A stretch of DNA of 64,000 nt from Escherichia phage E26, in sequence record MN655998.1; one strand, given 5' to 3'. Position 1 is the first letter of the stretch; each line of letters starts with the position of its first letter. Below the pieces are notes generated by a model, which was not told where the DNA came from, did no database searches, and saw nothing but the letters and a program-made list of their open reading frames with translations. Position numbers and translations under genes: made by a program. Below, piece by piece: positions 3,205-14,813 of the stretch.

Positions 3205-5028
3205 TTATGATTGCATCCAAATTTTGCGCTGATCTGCATCTTCACTATAGAGCAAATCGAATAGCTCTTTATAGTTTTCCGGTAACGTGATGATCTCCAT
3301 GACAGGATCGTTGATCACGCGATGATAGTCTGATTCTGTGAGCGATGCTAAACCTTTGATATATCGAATGTTGTAACCTTTGATATTATCTCGGTCGTTC
3401 TCGAAATCTTCTAGGTCATAATACCATCGAACATCATCACCTTTCTTTGGTTCAGCAATGATAATAGGTGTTTTGATAAACCGGATTCGTCCATCTTCGA
3501 ACAATTCAGGCCAACGTGCAAAGAAAGAGATCAGACTAGGTTTAATAGACCCGATCCCGTCGGTATCCGCGTCTGTCATAATCGCAATATTTTTGTATTG
3601 CATAACTTCCAATGCATCAACACCAAATTGCAAACCAGTGATCGCCATGATGTTAAAAATTTCGGCGTTCTTAACGATCTTTGCCTCCGGTTGTTCCCAC
3701 GTTGTAAGAGTTTTGCCTCGCAACGGGAAACCGCCATGTAAATCTTGATCACGTACAGAGATCAGATAGTTGATCGCGGAATCACCTTCCGTCAAAAACA
3801 GGGTAGTTTCTGCGTCAGTTCCAATAAGGTTAGCTTTAACATGTTTTGCTACCTTAGCCCGTTTCGCTGCCTTTGCTGCCTTAGTCGCTGCCGCTTTATC
3901 GGCTGCCTCTTTGCGTGCCAGGACTACAGCAATAATAGGCATGATAATGTTTTCTTTCTTCGCAATGACTTTAGCCAGCTTTTTAAAATCAAGATCAATA
4001 TGACGCTTGATATCACCAGTCGGGTTAGTCAAGCGTTCTTTTGTCTGTGAATCAAAACGAAGGTTAGGCAATTCACGAACAATAAGAATACAGGTCAATC
4101 CAGACTTAACCGCAGCTTTAGTAACATCAACCTTATATTCTTTCTTGATTCGTTTTACAATCTCTTCACAAAGATCATCTGTCACGTAGTCTACGTGTGT
4201 TCCCCCGTTTTTGGTAAACAGACCATTAGCAAAGGATACTGATTTAAAACCTTCTCCCTCGACCGCAGGAACTAGGGCAAGTGAGAAGTTTTTATCCTCG
4301 ATGACAAACGGATCATCATTGTATAGTTTAGCATAATCCTTAAACTTGCTGGTTATCTTTTTGCCATTAAACTTAAACGTGATCTTAGGAAAGATTACAC
4401 TTAAGGAATACATACGGTCACAAATTACATCTGAAATTTCTTGTGACATGATCATGCCTTCAAAATGATCGAAATCAGGGCAGAATGTAACCTTAGTCCC
4501 TTTCAGCTTTGATGGTTTAGATGACCAACTAATATTTTCAGCGCCATTGGTGCATTGTACGGTCAATTCATTCTCACCATCGCATGTCACACCAGTAAAC
4601 CACGATGAGAAAAATGATGTGAGCGCGCTTCCTATCCCATTCATCCCCATAGTGACACGATTTGTATCATCAAAGTTAGATCCTGCTTTAGCTCGTGTCC
4701 ATGCAGCCACTGGTTGGGGAATCTGTTTCCCTTCTGGTGTAGTGACTATATGTTGTGGAATGCCGCGACCGTTATCTGTTACCGACACAATGTTATCTTT
4801 GATATCTACGCTAATAACATTAGCGTATTCAAAATTAGTGCGGATCGCTTCGTCTACAGAGTTGTCGATAATCTCATCAATAATTTTAACTAGACCGGGA
4901 ACATATGATACTTTGGTCCATTTTCCAAAAAGGAAACGATTATGTGATTCATAAGTCGTTGACCCTATGTACATCGAAGGTCTTTTAAGACAGTGAGCGC
5001 GATCATCTAACAGCAAAAATTCAGACAT
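3205..5028 (-). CDS. 39: DNA topoisomerase II large subunit, GyrB-like ATPase + Toprim (gp39 and gp60 fused)
   Basis: 607 aa; PSMYIGST, DNGRGIP, MTDADTDG motifs; length matches fused 39+60 of non-T4 T-evens. Confidence 0.9.
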   Translation of the reverse strand: MSEFLLLDDRAHCLKRPSMYIGSTTYESHNRFLFGKWTKVSYVPGLVKIIDEIIDNSVDEAIRTNFEYANVISVDIKDNIVSVTDNGRGIPQHIVTTPEGKQIPQPVAAWTRAKAGSNFDDTNRVTMGMNGIGSALTSFFSSWFTGVTCDGENELTVQCTNGAENISWSSKPSKLKGTKVTFCPDFDHFEGMIMSQEISDVICDRMYSLSVIFPKITFKFNGKKITSKFKDYAKLYNDDPFVIEDKNFSLALVPAVEGEGFKSVSFANGLFTKNGGTHVDYVTDDLCEEIVKRIKKEYKVDVTKAAVKSGLTCILIVRELPNLRFDSQTKERLTNPTGDIKRHIDLDFKKLAKVIAKKENIIMPIIAVVLARKEAADKAAATKAAKAAKRAKVAKHVKANLIGTDAETTLFLTEGDSAINYLISVRDQDLHGGFPLRGKTLTTWEQPEAKIVKNAEIFNIMAITGLQFGVDALEVMQYKNIAIMTDADTDGIGSIKPSLISFFARWPELFEDGRIRFIKTPIIIAEPKKGDDVRWYYDLEDFENDRDNIKGYNIRYIKGLASLTESDYHRVINDPVMEIITLPENYKELFDLLYSEDADQRKIWMQS

Positions 5029-5034
5029 ATTATA

Positions 5035-5778
5035 TCATTCTCCGTCAGTTCGTTTCAGGTATTCCAACGCTGCATATAGTCTTTGCGGATCGTCTTTGAA
5101 CATTCCTAATCCGGCGTTACATTTTCCACAAAGAACACCTCTTATCTTACCAGTCTTATGATTATGGTCAAGATGTTTCCACTTTTGGCGTTTTCTCTCG
5201 CCGCATCGTTCATTTATGAATTTTACACCGCATATCTCGCAATTGTCAACTCTGTCTAAAATTTCTAGCGCTTCTCGTTTTGTTATTTTTATACCATCTT
5301 CGGCGTGGTGATATGGTCTATCTAGTTCTCGTTCTCGTTTCTCAAACAATCGACACTCATCAGAACAATACTTTTGAGATGCGTTTATTGCAACAAATGG
5401 TTTACCGCATTTAGCGCATTCTCGTTCAATCTTTATGTTTTGTGTCTGATCCAACGATGCGCAACGAGAACAGCAAAATTTATGATAGCCTCTAGAGTAT
5501 GTATGATAATTTACAGGATTTGGGCATCTTGCACATTTAACTATTCCTGTTATTCCGTGGCGCAATCTATAAACAGCCTCGTTATATGGTTGTTGATTTC
5601 TGAGACCTCCATTACAGAACTTAAACTCATTCCTTATAATCTGAAATTCCGCAGGATACAATTTTTCCATTTCTGGAATTTTATTTTCTTTAAAAAGATT
5701 TGAGTTTAGTCTATTTCCGCTTTTCGCCTCCAGAACATCAACAATAAACTTTTTGATGTTCACTTTTTCTCTCTCCAA
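5035..5778 (-). CDS. HNH (endonuclease VII-type) homing endonuclease-like protein with N-terminal Cys clusters
   Basis: C-terminal HLDHNHKTGKIRGVLCGKCN motif; several CxxC pairs; track start is TTG, true start may be GTG at 5763. Confidence 0.65.
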   Translation of the reverse strand: MEREKVNIKKFIVDVLEAKSGNRLNSNLFKENKIPEMEKLYPAEFQIIRNEFKFCNGGLRNQQPYNEAVYRLRHGITGIVKCARCPNPVNYHTYSRGYHKFCCSRCASLDQTQNIKIERECAKCGKPFVAINASQKYCSDECRLFEKRERELDRPYHHAEDGIKITKREALEILDRVDNCEICGVKFINERCGERKRQKWKHLDHNHKTGKIRGVLCGKCNAGLGMFKDDPQRLYAALEYLKRTDGE

Positions 5779-5870
5779 TACATAACATAACCATAACTTA
5801 CTGCAACCGCCACAAAGACGGCTGCAACAATCATATTAAAAATTGAGTGATTGTCAAGTATATGACTCAT
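5760..5870 (-). CDS. small membrane protein (36 aa, below track cutoff)
   Basis: Hand-translated MSHILDNHSIFNMIVAAVFVAVAVSYGYVMYWREKK; ATGA stop-start overlap with upstream gene. Confidence 0.35.
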   Translation of the reverse strand: MSHILDNHSIFNMIVAAVFVAVAVSYGYVMYWREKK

Positions 5871-6040
5871 GACACGCGCACATTTTTATCATAGTACCCG
5901 CCATTAATCCCGCGCGGGGCAGTCAATCCCTGTTTGCATTCTTTACCACATTCAGGGCATTCTGCCTTTTCACGCTCGGAAATTTTGCGGATTTTCTGAA
6001 ATTGACCGTGTTCTTCACAAGAATAATCGTATAATGGCAT
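5867..6040 (-). CDS. FmdB-like zinc-ribbon protein
   Basis: MPLYDYSCEEHG...CPECGKEC; start at internal Met of track ORF 5867..6121. Confidence 0.5.
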   Translation of the reverse strand: MPLYDYSCEEHGQFQKIRKISEREKAECPECGKECKQGLTAPRGINGGYYDKNVRVS

Positions 6041-6041
6041 A

Positions 6042-6710
6042 TTATCCCCTTTGTTTCTTAACTGAATTTGGATCTGGATTTTCTGGTAGGTCTTCCAGAC
6101 CCATAGCATAACGTTGTGCATAGATTAGCATAAGAATATCGCGAGCGCAATCATGAATTGCATCATGTGCGATAAAACCATCTAGCGTACCCATTGGTAA
6201 CGGACACTCACACATCCCGCGATGCATCAATGTACGCTCAATGGCGGTGCGAACATCTCGGATATTCCAGAATCGCACAGGTTCAAGGCTGAACGTCTCT
6301 CGTGTATTGTGTGCACGGCGGATCATATCAACTAGCAACGGAATATCAAACGCATTACCGCGTGACCACATTACTGATTTAACCGGATCTACTCCTACGG
6401 CTTCACAGAATGCGTTAAAACGAGCTAAACCTTCTTTAGTTGATACTTCCGTACCATTTGTGATTAATTGCTTTCTCATGCCTTCTGAGGCGGTATTCTT
6501 CCACCATTCAACCACACCATGATCAAACACTCTTACACCTTTCTGGGAAGGAATATCAAATTTTACCAGAAAGGAATTGTCAACCAGTTCTTTAAATGTA
6601 GGTGGATTGTGCGGATCTTCTTTAAATCCGATTGCCGCCATATTGATAACCGCCCCATCAGGCGGATAACCTAAACTTTCAAAGTCAATCATTAAATCCA
6701 CTGGAAGCAT
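6042..6710 (-). CDS. dexA: exonuclease A (DEDD 3'-5' exonuclease)
   Basis: DFESLG...H motifs; T4 synteny upstream of topo II; start at MLPVDL internal Met. Confidence 0.8.
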   Translation of the reverse strand: MLPVDLMIDFESLGYPPDGAVINMAAIGFKEDPHNPPTFKELVDNSFLVKFDIPSQKGVRVFDHGVVEWWKNTASEGMRKQLITNGTEVSTKEGLARFNAFCEAVGVDPVKSVMWSRGNAFDIPLLVDMIRRAHNTRETFSLEPVRFWNIRDVRTAIERTLMHRGMCECPLPMGTLDGFIAHDAIHDCARDILMLIYAQRYAMGLEDLPENPDPNSVKKQRG

Positions 6711-6711
6711 T

Positions 6712-6954
6712 TTAAATATCCTCCGCGATATGCCGGAACAACTCCAGATCGTTTTTATCCAGAATGAAACCGCTACAATCAATAATCCCGTTACCGTAAT
6801 TATCGGTTAACAGTCGTTCCGTTGCCATGTATGCGCGTACTTTGTTGTTAAAATTCATTACATGTTGTGCATAGTCACAATGAATCTTTTGACGGTTCCA
6901 CGCGACAATTGATTGTAGATGTATTACATTAGCCATATCATTAATAACAACCAT
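6712..6954 (-). CDS. hypothetical protein
   Basis: ORF tiling; no motif. Confidence 0.45.
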   Translation of the reverse strand: MVVINDMANVIHLQSIVAWNRQKIHCDYAQHVMNFNNKVRAYMATERLLTDNYGNGIIDCSGFILDKNDLELFRHIAEDI

Positions 6955-10761: not shown

Positions 10762-11790
10762 TTAAAATTTACAATATTTCATAAACCGCATTTTAGCCAT
10801 CAGACCTTGTACGGTGTTCTCTTTGATGTATTCCATGATCTGGTCGCGTGTAGCGCCCTCGTCCTGAATCATGGCGTTAACGTCTTTAGAATGCCACGGG
10901 CAGCGATCCCACAAAACAATCTTTTCCCCTGCATTGATAAACTTTTCCAGTCGGTGCATTGTATCGGCAGACCGTGGTTCCGCATCAAGTACAAACACTC
11001 GCTGGTCTGGGAAAGGGATTTCATCTAATCCCAAAGTACCGCCAGTAATTGCACACCCGTTATCAATAAACAATGAATCGATCGGACCTTCTAAGAAATA
11101 CACCGGTTTACTCGGATCGGCGCGTTCAAGACCATAGACCTTACTCGCTAACTCATGAGTTTTAATCGTCATATATTTGGTCTTTCCGTAATCCTTTCTC
11201 AATGCTCGCCCCTGAATGGATTCTATCTTGTTCTCGCGGTTAAAGATAGGAATCACTAAACGCGGTTCCGGTTGCGGATTCTTGAAGGTATCCGCTTTAA
11301 TGTGATTTGCTACCTTTTGCCATTCTCTCGTGAAATACAGAAGATCCCATTTATCATGAGGGATGCAACGATCACTGACATACTTTATTATAGGATGATT
11401 AGCCGGAAGAGTATCTAATCTATCGCAGAAAGGCAATGTTTGCACTTTCTTAATCCCCGGCTTTTCTACCTTTTTCAGTGGCTTGAACGTAGTGTTCTTG
11501 TGATCGCCTTGTTCCTTCCGTCGTTCCATAAGCCATTCCCTGAATAGGTCCGGCTTATACTGTTTGAGAAATTCACCTAACGGCTGATTGTAGTTACAGT
11601 TGAAACATCCTGCTCGCAAACTATCCTTATAGGTATAGATACGGAATCGCGCTTGAGTATGATTTTTCTTTGAGTCACCGCAGATCGGACAACTACAGAC
11701 CAGCGTAAATGAGCTAGTATGCAACCGTTTAAAATTTCGTTCGCCGTATATGGCTTTTTCCGCTATTTCATAATCTGCGTAGTAAATCAT
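10762..11790 (-). CDS. 61: DNA primase gp61
   Basis: 342 aa; N-terminal zinc ribbon CSCPICGDS...CFNC; Toprim region; T4 gp61 length. Confidence 0.9.
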   Translation of the reverse strand: MIYYADYEIAEKAIYGERNFKRLHTSSFTLVCSCPICGDSKKNHTQARFRIYTYKDSLRAGCFNCNYNQPLGEFLKQYKPDLFREWLMERRKEQGDHKNTTFKPLKKVEKPGIKKVQTLPFCDRLDTLPANHPIIKYVSDRCIPHDKWDLLYFTREWQKVANHIKADTFKNPQPEPRLVIPIFNRENKIESIQGRALRKDYGKTKYMTIKTHELASKVYGLERADPSKPVYFLEGPIDSLFIDNGCAITGGTLGLDEIPFPDQRVFVLDAEPRSADTMHRLEKFINAGEKIVLWDRCPWHSKDVNAMIQDEGATRDQIMEYIKENTVQGLMAKMRFMKYCKF

Positions 11791-11799
11791 AATAACCTC

Positions 11800-12003
11800 T
11801 TATAGCTCAAATTTCATGAAAGTTCCTACACTTTCATTTTCATTCTCTCCGTTTTCATCTAAGCCAAATTTGTAGACACTACCATCTGGCGATGTGTAAG
11901 AGAATACACGAAAACGGCCTACCGAATCAAGTTCTGTAAATTCATATTCTTTTCCGGCTTCAAAAAGTGCATATGTGCTTTTAAGACATTTCATCGTAAT
12001 CAT
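11800..12003 (-). CDS. hypothetical protein
   Basis: ORF tiling; start overlaps upstream stop (ATGA). Confidence 0.45.
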   Translation of the reverse strand: MITMKCLKSTYALFEAGKEYEFTELDSVGRFRVFSYTSPDGSVYKFGLDENGENENESVGTFMKFEL

Positions 12004-12143
12004 TTAAGCGCCACCGACAACAGAATGAGAACTACACCAACATACATTGTGATCTCGGATAACTTTTCTGTTTTTGTTTTGTGTCCAGATAATCCGAAAA
12101 CAACAACACCGATAATAGCGGACAGCAAGCCAACGATAAACAT
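12000..12143 (-). CDS. small two-helix membrane protein (47 aa, below track cutoff)
   Basis: Hand-translated MFIVGLLSAIIGVVVFGLSGHKTKTEKLSEITMYVGVVLILLSVALK; TGA overlaps next ATG. Confidence 0.4.
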   Translation of the reverse strand: MFIVGLLSAIIGVVVFGLSGHKTKTEKLSEITMYVGVVLILLSVALK

Positions 12144-12310
12144 GATGATACTAAGCACCGTCTTTCTTTACCCGCTACACTAGGTCCACGATTGGTGATA
12201 GATCCGCTCGTTTCACCTGCTGCGATCTTCTCAGGATTGCCGCCAGCATCGCCAGCGGTCATATCTTCTTTGAGTTTATTTTCTTCAACAAACTGTTTAA
12301 AGCCAATCAT
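12032..12310 (-). CDS. uncertain ORF; N-terminal 44 codons protein-like, remainder overlaps the 12000..12143 frame
   Basis: C-terminal half Cys/Leu/Ser-rich as for out-of-frame translation. Confidence 0.25.
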   Translation of the reverse strand: MIGFKQFVEENKLKEDMTAGDAGGNPEKIAAGETSGSITNRGPSVAGKERRCLVSSCLSLACCPLLSVLLFSDYLDTKQKQKSYPRSQCMLV

Positions 12311-12684
12311 AGAATAATCTCTTTCAGTAAGTCAACAATCTGGTCTTTCGTCAGTTTATCCTGATTCTCTACAATCTTGATAACACAAGCGTTAACATCT
12401 TTTCGAGTCACGCGGGAGATCGTTTTAATGCGGTTAAATGGTTCGTAGAAATATACTGCTTCATTATAGAGAGCGGATACTTTACGACGCATTTGATCTT
12501 TATCTGACAAGAAAACAAGTGCTGTTTTATGACCTTCTACACCCGCCACGTTATATAGTTCAGCAACACCCCAGCGACCTTCCGGTTCAATCATTCCGGC
12601 GTGTTTACCGTCGATAAAAATAAGAATATCTCCGTTGAATGCGGTTTTGAATGCTACATCTTCCGGCTTAATCATATTTTTCAT
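12307..12684 (-). CDS. hypothetical protein
   Basis: ORF tiling. Confidence 0.5.
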   Translation of the reverse strand: MKNMIKPEDVAFKTAFNGDILIFIDGKHAGMIEPEGRWGVAELYNVAGVEGHKTALVFLSDKDQMRRKVSALYNEAVYFYEPFNRIKTISRVTRKDVNACVIKIVENQDKLTKDQIVDLLKEIIL

Positions 12685-12714
12685 AATATAGTCTCCTTAG
12701 AGTTTCATTATAGA

Positions 12715-13350
12715 TCAATCGAATGTAGAAAGCAACTGTTTTGTTTCTTTCAGTTGTCGTTCAAGATTTTTGCGTTTCTCTTTAAGTTGCATTTTAGCAT
12801 TATTTCGCTCTCTTGTAACCTCTTTATCAATGCTCTTATTCCAGTTATCAATATCAGAATAAGTTGGCATACCCAATTCTAAACCTAATGCGGTTGGATG
12901 CAGGGTAACAGTCCATAAACCGCTAATCTTCTTAAATAGGTCTGGGTGTAGTGTACTATCTACATCTTCCGGTGTCAACTCTTTTTCTTCTTTCAGTGGT
13001 GGGTTCTCGTCATATGGTTCCAGTGCATTTACTTTAATATCAGATACCTCATCAAAGAATCCGCGTACATCCGCAGGAAATACACAAGCAATTTCCCAAC
13101 CGTGTTCACGCAGAGAAGTAATATTTTTCACTTCCCCACCATGTGCGATAATTGACGTAACATTACCATCAAGATCCACAGAATTTACAAGAAACGGCTT
13201 ATCGTCTGTCAGATCATTATAAAATTGTGCTTCGGCGGTAGTCATCTCCAGAAAAAGGTCACGAATAGGTCGACCATCTGGTGCATTGCCTTCCTTGAGA
13301 GTGTAGATTCGACTTACGATCCATTTTGGCGGTAAAGTATTAGCGATCAT
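12715..13350 (-). CDS. hypothetical protein
   Basis: ORF tiling; AGGAG RBS. Confidence 0.5.
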   Translation of the reverse strand: MIANTLPPKWIVSRIYTLKEGNAPDGRPIRDLFLEMTTAEAQFYNDLTDDKPFLVNSVDLDGNVTSIIAHGGEVKNITSLREHGWEIACVFPADVRGFFDEVSDIKVNALEPYDENPPLKEEKELTPEDVDSTLHPDLFKKISGLWTVTLHPTALGLELGMPTYSDIDNWNKSIDKEVTRERNNAKMQLKEKRKNLERQLKETKQLLSTFD

Positions 13351-13400: not shown

Positions 13401-14813
13401 TTAGAAAGTCATATTATTTGCTAGCTCGTCGAGTTTTTCGCGTTTCTCGGCTTGCTGTGCGCTTTGTGGTTTAACTTGTGCATTCTCCTGATCTGCGATC
13501 TGGTTTGGAACTTCATACCAACGCTGATTTCCTTTTTTCACACCAACGTTAAACCGTGAATAATAGTTCTTATCACCGTAACGAGACTTGATCTGCTTCA
13601 TGAGTTGGACGCCCATTTTAGCCAGGTCTTCGGTTTCGATAACACCCAACATAAAGTCGGCTGTAGCCGGAAGACCTGCTGATTCAGCGGTATCACTCAT
13701 GTTAAGGTCGGAAGCATCCCAACCCGCGCGGGTAGTCTGTGCCGCAGTCCAACCAACAACATCCCACTTAACAAAAAATCCGCGAAGTTCTTCCGCAATC
13801 GCTTTAACGAGAGTGTAGCTATTCTCAGAGTATACACGCAAGCGAGACGATGCGCAAATCCCCAGATAATCAACAATCACAACATCAGGTTTAAACTGTT
13901 TCTTGAGTCGCAATTCATTCATTAACGCCTCAAAGTGATTGGAGTTTGCGCCACCAGTCGGATATTGCTTGATCATCAATTTTCCAACCGGACGATCTCC
14001 GATCTTCTTATTCTTAACACGCTTCATACGTGCGGAATATTCCGCAAAAGAAACATTACCATTATCCAATTCATCTAAGGTAATGTCAAGTAAGTTTGCA
14101 TCAATACGTTTGGCTACGACATGCTCTGCCATCTCCATTGAGATATACAATACATCATAACCACATTCCATATAATCCGCAGCAAGAGAACACAATCCAA
14201 GCGATTTGCCAACGTTTACACCAGCAAGCAACACATTTAGAGTTTTTCTTTCCGCCCCTCCTTTCGTGATTTTATTCAACATAGGCAGTTTAAACGGGAT
14301 CTTATTCGCTTTAGTCTGATATAGCAAGAATCGTTTTTCAAAGTCATTAAACCAGTCATGACCTACATCAGAATCAAACGTAATGGATAGTGCTTCCTGC
14401 ATGATCTCAGGAATAGCTCCCTCACTCGGCAATTTCTTATTCTGTTTCTCTTTTGGTAGTTGTGCGTTCGCCTGAATCTCTAGCGCCCGTGACATTGCAT
14501 TATACATGGCACGGTCACGAATAAATTTTTCGGTTTCCTTCATTAACCAATCAAGGTCTTCCGGTGTATTCTCCAGCGAATCGAGAAGAGTTTTAGCCCC
14601 TTCATATGTTGTCTGATTGCCTCTCTCCTTGTCCAAAGCAATCTGTAATGCAGTTGGCGTAGGAATATTGGAATATTCGTCTACGTGCTTTTTAATCAGC
14701 TTATAAATCAGTTTTTCTTCGTCTTCGGTGAAGTAGTCCGCTTTAAGGTGAGGCCATACATTCGTAAAGAATGCGCCATTGTAAATCAACTGTGAAAAGA
14801 TAGTTTTAATCAT
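13401..14813 (-). CDS. 41: replicative DNA helicase gp41 (DnaB-like)
   Basis: Walker A GVNVGKS; DnaB-family C-terminal domain; 470 aa; synteny 61-41-uvsX. Confidence 0.9.
   Translation of the reverse strand: MIKTIFSQLIYNGAFFTNVWPHLKADYFTEDEEKLIYKLIKKHVDEYSNIPTPTALQIALDKERGNQTTYEGAKTLLDSLENTPEDLDWLMKETEKFIRDRAMYNAMSRALEIQANAQLPKEKQNKKLPSEGAIPEIMQEALSITFDSDVGHDWFNDFEKRFLLYQTKANKIPFKLPMLNKITKGGAERKTLNVLLAGVNVGKSLGLCSLAADYMECGYDVLYISMEMAEHVVAKRIDANLLDITLDELDNGNVSFAEYSARMKRVKNKKIGDRPVGKLMIKQYPTGGANSNHFEALMNELRLKKQFKPDVVIVDYLGICASSRLRVYSENSYTLVKAIAEELRGFFVKWDVVGWTAAQTTRAGWDASDLNMSDTAESAGLPATADFMLGVIETEDLAKMGVQLMKQIKSRYGDKNYYSRFNVGVKKGNQRWYEVPNQIADQENAQVKPQSAQQAEKREKLDELANNMTF

Follow-up and report, generated by a model that had tools for sequence, protein, structure and literature searches.

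Escherichia phage E26, with a genome of 164,572 bp, is a T4-like phage of the RB49 group, genus Krischvirus. Between its helicase gene 41 and its primase gene 61, a 92-aa open reading frame (ORF) runs across a small hydrophobic ORF in a different frame of the same strand. This arrangement raises the question of whether E26 uses both frames, by recoding or as a fusion, whether one gene has lost its proper end, or whether the conflict exists in the database record alone. We addressed this question within a window of 64 kb, the whole stretch of E26 DNA that was analyzed, by comparing the locus with related phage genomes, protein family profiles and metagenome collections. Our preferred answer, to which we assign a probability of roughly 80%, is that 17 bp have been deleted from the 3′ end of the E26 homologue of gene 61.1 and that this deletion is real in the sequenced phage stock.

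Gene arrangement and the overlapping frames

Every gene in the surveyed part of the window lies on the minus strand, and the features of the locus are collected in Table 1. A preliminary description made from the letters of the window alone, hereafter the sequence-only reading, had reported that the 92-aa ORF overlaps a small membrane-protein ORF in another frame, and both ORFs are indeed present on the minus strand. They share 112 nt if the membrane ORF starts at its ATG and 127 nt if it starts at the in-frame GTG further upstream. Since neighboring genes in the closely related phage G2248 overlap by at most 44 nt over 50 kb, the overlap in E26 is far beyond the local norm. The sequence-only reading had also placed the TGA of the membrane ORF over the ATG of the following gene, and the two codons do share the ATGA at 12003-12000.

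A sigma-70-like match (TTGACT, 18 nt, TATGAT) at 12306-12335 on the minus strand covers the 61.1 start codon. The 1.9-kb stretch that includes this match contains nine promoter-like matches, compared with 4.4 +/- 2.3 in shuffled sequence, and the match at the start codon is probably due to chance.

Table 1. Features of the E26 locus between genes 41 and 61 (window coordinates).
Feature	Position	Strand	Remarks
Helicase gene 41	14813..13401	-	Most upstream in the listed order
211-aa gene ('Dc2' in RB49)	13350..12715	-	Downstream of gene 41
125-aa gene ('Dc1' in RB49)	12684..12307	-	Directly before the 92-aa ORF
92-aa ORF	12310..12032	-	ATG start; TAG stop at 12034-12032
Intact 61.1 part, codons 1-49 (MIGFKQFVEE...PSVAGKE)	12164..12310	-	Equals RB49/JSE Gp61.1 residues 1-49
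Deletion junction, remaining AGAAA copy (TTTCT on the plus strand)	12163..12167	-	From alignments
Out-of-frame tail, codons 50-92 (RRCLVSSCLSLACC...QCMLV), and TAG	12032..12163	-	Outside the gp61.1 profile
Two-helix hydrophobic ORF, end 12000	ATG 12143 (47 aa) or in-frame GTG 12158 (52 aa)	-	
52-aa membrane-protein gene, GTG start	12158..12000	-	phrog_18360 matched 1-52/52, E 2.7e-32
67-aa gene, phrog_9181	12003..11800	-	Annotated in RB49, ELT4, W115, JSE, G2248
Primase gene 61	11790..10762	-	Last in the listed order

A probable 17-bp deletion at the 3′ end of the 61.1 homologue

The 92-aa translation is 100% identical to QHB48619.1, a 'hypothetical protein' of Escherichia phage E26. Its ORF occupies the same position between genes 41 and 61 as in RB49, JSE and T4, and its residues 1-51 match positions 1-46 of the 54 in the gp61.1 profile phrog_1823 (E 1.3e-21); RB49 Gp61.1 matches positions 1-51 of the same profile. 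Past residue 51 the E26 ORF has no match to this profile. In the sequence-only reading the first 44 codons had been called protein-like, which holds for the start of the ORF, although the identity to residues 1-49 of RB49 and JSE Gp61.1 extends the protein-like part to 49 codons. The suggestion that the remainder is Cys/Leu/Ser-rich is borne out by the composition of the 43-residue tail, in which Leu (9), Ser (7) and Cys (5) together account for 49%, and the proposed comparison with the T4 61.x region proved apt, with the N-terminal part being a homologue of T4 gp61.1.

In RB49, ELT4, W115, G2248 and JSE, a 177-nt gene 61.1 encodes 58 aa. The protein in relatives ends in ...GKEKRKKEKDGA (DNG in JSE), and the next gene starts 8 nt ahead of the 61.1 stop. 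In every one of the 58 related Krischvirus phage records, the stretch matching a 1101-nt E26 query is 17 nt longer than in E26. With a 151-nt query, 53 records (all full-length relatives) span 168 nt, while the other five, of the JSE/GEC-3S type (JSE, GEC-3S and G2494), diverge downstream of the junction; the JSE sequence, read directly, has the undeleted form. The extra 17 bases in the relatives are AGAAAAACGCAAAAAGG. Alignments give the junction region as GGTAA-AGAAA-AACGCAAAAAGG-AGAAA-GACGGTG in the relatives and GGTAA-AGAAA-GACGGTG in E26; the 5-bp direct repeat AGAAA flanks the missing bases, and E26 retains one copy of it. A 17-bp loss between two AGAAA copies is what replication slippage or a microhomology-mediated deletion would be expected to leave. 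Short direct repeats are a known footprint of slippage deletions in T4-type phages.

The same gap is found by BLAST against G2248, which places 17 missing nucleotides at window position 12163. Over the first 30.6 kb, E26 and G2248 differ by four indels, and the 17-bp loss is the only one in a coding region, while the other three, each one base long, lie in terminators or intergenic sequence. The junction reads GGTAAAGAAAGACGG in E26 and GGTAAAGAAAAACGCAAAAAGGAGAAAGACGG where it is undeleted, and we also looked for the deleted and undeleted forms in wider collections. The E26 form was not found in IMG/VR, where the undeleted form occurs on one contig; both metagenome contigs matching the junction region carry the undeleted 39-nt form; and neither form was found in the representative collection of bacterial and archaeal genomes. 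Across a collection of 15 billion proteins, the 92-aa protein occurs on one contig and the exact 52-aa membrane protein on 320, and no independent contig with the 92-aa protein was present in the assembly collection.

The deletion shifts the frame past codon 49, removing the conserved Lys-rich KRKKEKDGA end together with the stop codon, and the ORF then continues in the wrong frame over the next gene for 43 codons, which makes up the 92-aa ORF. From codon 50 onward, E26 is read in the -1 frame relative to the original sequence; the TAG of 61.1 is missed in this frame, and the next stop is that at 12034-12032. In place of the Lys-rich end, the residues following ...GKE are RRCLVSS... (RRCLVSSCLSLACCPLLSVLLF...). 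The option of 'two genes with a missing stop' raised by the sequence-only reading was thus essentially right, in that the 61.1 stop is bypassed through the frame shift caused by the 17-bp deletion. We infer that the 92-aa product would be a damaged gp61.1 and not a new functional protein.

The small membrane-protein gene beneath the overlap

The protein encoded beneath the overlap has hydrophobic helices at residues 2-22 and 36-51, separated by the basic loop GHKTKTEK, and its hydropathy window exceeds 2.3 at residues 1-25 and 36-52. The JSE orthologue has an ATG exactly where E26 has GTG 12158, and a Val where E26 has its internal Met, while the PHROG 18360 profile, of 52 positions, is matched end to end. 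On the strength of these two observations we take the gene to be the 52-aa rather than the 47-aa form, with GTG 12158 the most likely start, judging from these comparisons, instead of ATG 12143. The two-helix gene proposed by the sequence-only reading therefore stands, but its start moves upstream by five codons from the 47-aa version.

Comparison with JSE over the 159 nt of the membrane gene (70% DNA identity, 48 differences) allows the two overlapping frames to be contrasted. By codon position, the differences fall 18/6/24 in the membrane frame, with the helices and the loop GxKTKTEK kept, and 6/24/17 in the frame of the 92-aa tail, which has a stop in JSE. The substitution pattern is coding-like in the membrane frame and not in the tail frame, as read from this pair of sequences. 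The membrane protein occurs in Krischvirus alone, in three 90% clusters.

In the relatives an AAGGAG ribosome-binding site lies 7 nt before the membrane-gene start. Most of this site lies within the 17 deleted bases: the deletion takes out AAGG of AAGGAG, and the predicted pairing with the 16S rRNA 3′ end weakens from -8.7 to -4.6 kcal/mol. E26 has also lost the 8-nt stop/start overlap between 61.1 and the membrane gene. Translation of the membrane protein would be much reduced because the ribosome-binding site and the stop/start coupling are lost and ribosomes would be crossing the gene in another frame, and the protein may be made poorly or not at all. Some weak initiation at GTG 12158 or ATG 12143 might nevertheless persist in E26. 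Downstream, the ATGA coupling between the membrane gene and the 67-aa gene would in turn be lost. For gp61.1 and the membrane protein alike, it is conservation among the relatives that suggests a loss of function.

The start of the membrane gene is annotated unevenly, with 47 aa in RB49, Phi1 and G2248 and 52 aa in JSE, ELT4 and W115. In UPWr_E1, an 88-aa ORF has been called in the membrane frame, which is open for about 36 codons upstream, and 61.1 has been omitted (692-958 in the extracted piece). The same locus thereby misleads gene callers in other genomes, with products of 47 or 52 aa and, in UPWr_E1, 88 aa.

Sequencing artefact, recoding or selected allele

The 17 bases could be present in the real E26 phage and have been lost in sequencing, assembly or consensus building, in which case the conflict would exist in the database record alone. 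One record alone contains the deletion allele, and the 3′ stretch of 61.1 is A-rich and of low complexity, both of which are compatible with such an artefact. A further, independent lesion comes from a Logan contig, SRR32346274_153210 (813-1139 in the extracted piece), in which a 1-nt loss from an A5 run eleven bases away (GAAAAAC to GAAAAC) generates a 108-aa in-frame fusion of 61.1 to the membrane protein. This loss, possibly also an error, may be a real mutation or an assembly fault, and it marks the A-rich 3′ part of 61.1 as liable either to indels or to assembly errors. Sequencing errors, however, usually involve one or two bases in homopolymers and not 17 bp between direct repeats, and a 5-bp repeat is far shorter than the k-mer of any assembler. 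The first 30 kb of E26 contain no other frame-breaking indel relative to G2248, which also rules out a generally poor quality of the E26 sequence. We consider an artefact unlikely.

A functional arrangement would require either a programmed frameshift, an option that the sequence-only reading had added and that would here be a -1 shift joining the 61.1 N-terminus to the membrane protein, or a 92-aa chimera with its hydrophobic tail kept by selection, as a new protein or as an escape allele that eliminates a host-defense trigger. In favor of this, the membrane protein is encoded in the -1 frame relative to the 92-aa tail, single-codon slippery tetramers occur at codons 58, 78 and 80 of the 92-aa ORF, and the Logan contig provides a natural in-frame fusion of the two genes. 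The T4 interval between genes 41 and 61 additionally contains counter-defense genes such as dmd. Against this, the 92-aa ORF is free of any canonical X_XXY_YYZ heptamer. The membrane frame, moreover, is open from 12167 only, which would confine a shift to a few codons or place it inside the membrane gene itself. The overlap arrangement was found in none of 58 phage records, nor on the one IMG/VR contig or either of two metagenome contigs; the 58 relatives all have two genes with an 8-nt overlap, and the tail frame is closed by a stop in JSE. The existence of the 108-aa Logan fusion is no evidence that such a product is made as a rule. We reject the programmed frameshift, and we allow a functional arrangement as a whole scarcely any chance. 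Overprinting, in which both overlapping genes would be real, was ruled out on the same lack of a heptamer and of conservation and on the closed frame in JSE, together with the tail having no homologue anywhere and the 92-aa form being limited to one contig. It is also conceivable that the deletion is a selected allele that in a single event disables gp61.1, as a capsid-targeted peptide copying the N-terminal arm of gp23, and the membrane protein translationally coupled to it; a defense system of the isolation host might, for instance, be triggered by one of the two. This we rate as improbable, at little better than one chance in twenty; if it were true, the gene pair would offer a handle on an unknown phage-host interaction. 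An ordinary deletion in the E26 stock is the explanation that we carry forward.

Resemblance of gp61.1 to gp23 and to the internal proteins

Gp61.1 is widespread, with tblastn finding 1,440 phage records among T4-like phages of Escherichia, Klebsiella, Aeromonas, Acinetobacter, Vibrio and others. For the comparisons below, T4 61.1 corresponds to 3467-3631 and RB49 gp23 to 5279-6865 in the extracted pieces. Residues 13-51 of RB49 gp61.1 align with residues 62-100 of RB49 gp23 at 49% identity (pairwise E 2e-10), and the same protein also aligns with T4 gp23 residues 64-101 in solved capsid structures (PDB 6uzc; E 0.001). The gp23 segment in question begins at the maturation cleavage site and takes in the first part of the mature protein, with mature gp23 chains aligning from their residue 4. 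Judged by these alignments, gp61.1 looks like the cleavage-site segment of gp23 duplicated as a protein of its own. This real similarity to gp23 explains why gp61.1 is labeled 'major capsid protein' in several records. No meaningful similarity was found between gp61.1 and the vertex protein gp24.

The N-terminus of gp61.1 points in a related direction. T4 gp61.1 begins with MKTFKEFIKE and the E26 protein with MIGFKQFVEE (12281-12310, minus strand), compared with MKTYQEFIAE, the 10-residue capsid targeting sequence of the T4 internal proteins IPII and IPIII, and MKTFKEF at the start of IPI. In the internal proteins, residues 4 and 7 are reported to be important in targeting and residues 8 and 10 in processing (PMC9026906; see also PMC3012670). 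These key positions are kept in gp61.1, including that of E26, as an aromatic residue at 4, Phe at 7, Ile or Val at 8 and Glu at 10. Within the 64-kb window, 61.1 is the only ORF with an N-terminus resembling those of the internal proteins.

Across 21 diverse small representatives of the family, the pattern is [L/I/V]-x-E, followed by MVAGDSGGNP..IA.G.TSG.IT..GP and then a Lys-rich tail, and the module either stands alone (about 50-60 aa) or forms the C-terminus of proteins of up to 164 aa. The Lys-rich tail is found in all 21, as well as in T4 gp61.1 and in RB49 and JSE Gp61.1, and is missing in E26. The representative search also returned giant repeat proteins of 2,000-3,600 aa, which we assume to be low-complexity, Gly/Ala-rich matches.

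From these sequence features, we infer that gp61.1 may be a small peptide that enters the capsid and is processed there by the gp21 protease, in which case the E26 allele would keep the targeting and gp23-like parts and swap the Lys-rich tail for a hydrophobic, Cys-rich stretch.

Function searches and local variation

Neither gp61.1 nor the membrane protein gave a significant match in Pfam and NCBIfam, and their PHROGs are both families of 'unknown function'. A literature search on gp61.1 or gene 61.1 and on phage E26 returned nothing on function or on the deletion allele. At 52-58 aa, the small proteins are probably either simple hairpins or disordered.

In-frame length variants occur in both genes: gp61.1 shows a duplication of GDA in one case and a loss of NRGP in another, and the membrane protein can have one more Val, encoded by a GTT repeat. 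To judge from these alleles, slippage is common at the two small genes, with the frame kept in the three in-frame variants. Elsewhere in the cluster, Dc1 (125 aa in the E26 window, 12307-12684) is split in the closest relative, ELT4, into ORFs at 1617-1742 and 1752-1994 of the extracted piece, which is a further lesion or error in the accessory cluster. The match to the 1.1-kb stretch at 11700-12800 spans 1691 nt in two pieces in ECD7, vB_Eco_TB34, vB_Eco_SAP and Cognac; an HNH homing endonuclease gene is annotated inside it in the first three and no HNH gene is annotated there in Cognac.

Discussion

In our reading, an ordinary, strain-specific 17-bp deletion accounts for the frame conflict in E26, and the 92-aa ORF represents a known gene in mutant form rather than a new one, without any recoding. 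The annotation can be adjusted to match: the 'hypothetical protein' QHB48619.1 is a frameshifted gp61.1, and the 52-aa gene from GTG 12158 deserves to be annotated. Because E26 still grows, both small genes would be dispensable, accessory functions under the conditions of isolation, and the deletion suggests that neither is required for the laboratory growth of Krischvirus. E26 can accordingly be regarded as a natural double mutant that is available for comparison with its intact relatives.

The similarities of gp61.1 to other proteins are more interesting than the deletion itself. The idea that the protein combines a targeting sequence of the internal-protein type, a copy of the gp23 cleavage-site region and a Lys-rich tail is a testable one for a family present in more than 1,400 T4-like phage genomes.

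Set beside known systems, the E26 locus shares a same-strand overlap with a second ORF in the -1 frame with the programmed frameshifting of E. coli dnaX and of the phage tail-assembly chaperones G/GT. Unlike these cases, the E26 overlap has neither a slippery heptamer nor conservation, and its relatives keep separate genes. Compared with T4 gp61.1 and RB49 Gp61.1 (PHROG 1823), the E26 copy is without the Lys-rich C-terminal tail and has 43 unrelated residues instead. With T4 IPI, IPII and IPIII, gp61.1 shares an N-terminal sequence of the targeting type, whereas the rest of the protein resembles the gp23 segment past the cleavage site and no internal protein. The coding sequence for the Krischvirus membrane protein of PHROG 18360 (RB49p018; 'putative membrane protein' W115_52) is intact in E26, but, in contrast to its relatives, the E26 gene is without the AAGGAG and the overlap with 61.1, and a longer ORF crosses it in another frame. 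Spontaneous deletions between short direct repeats were classically mapped in the rII genes of T4. Like those rII-type deletions of T4-type phages, the loss in E26 is bounded by a repeat of which one copy is kept, and E26 provides a further instance of this class in an accessory gene.
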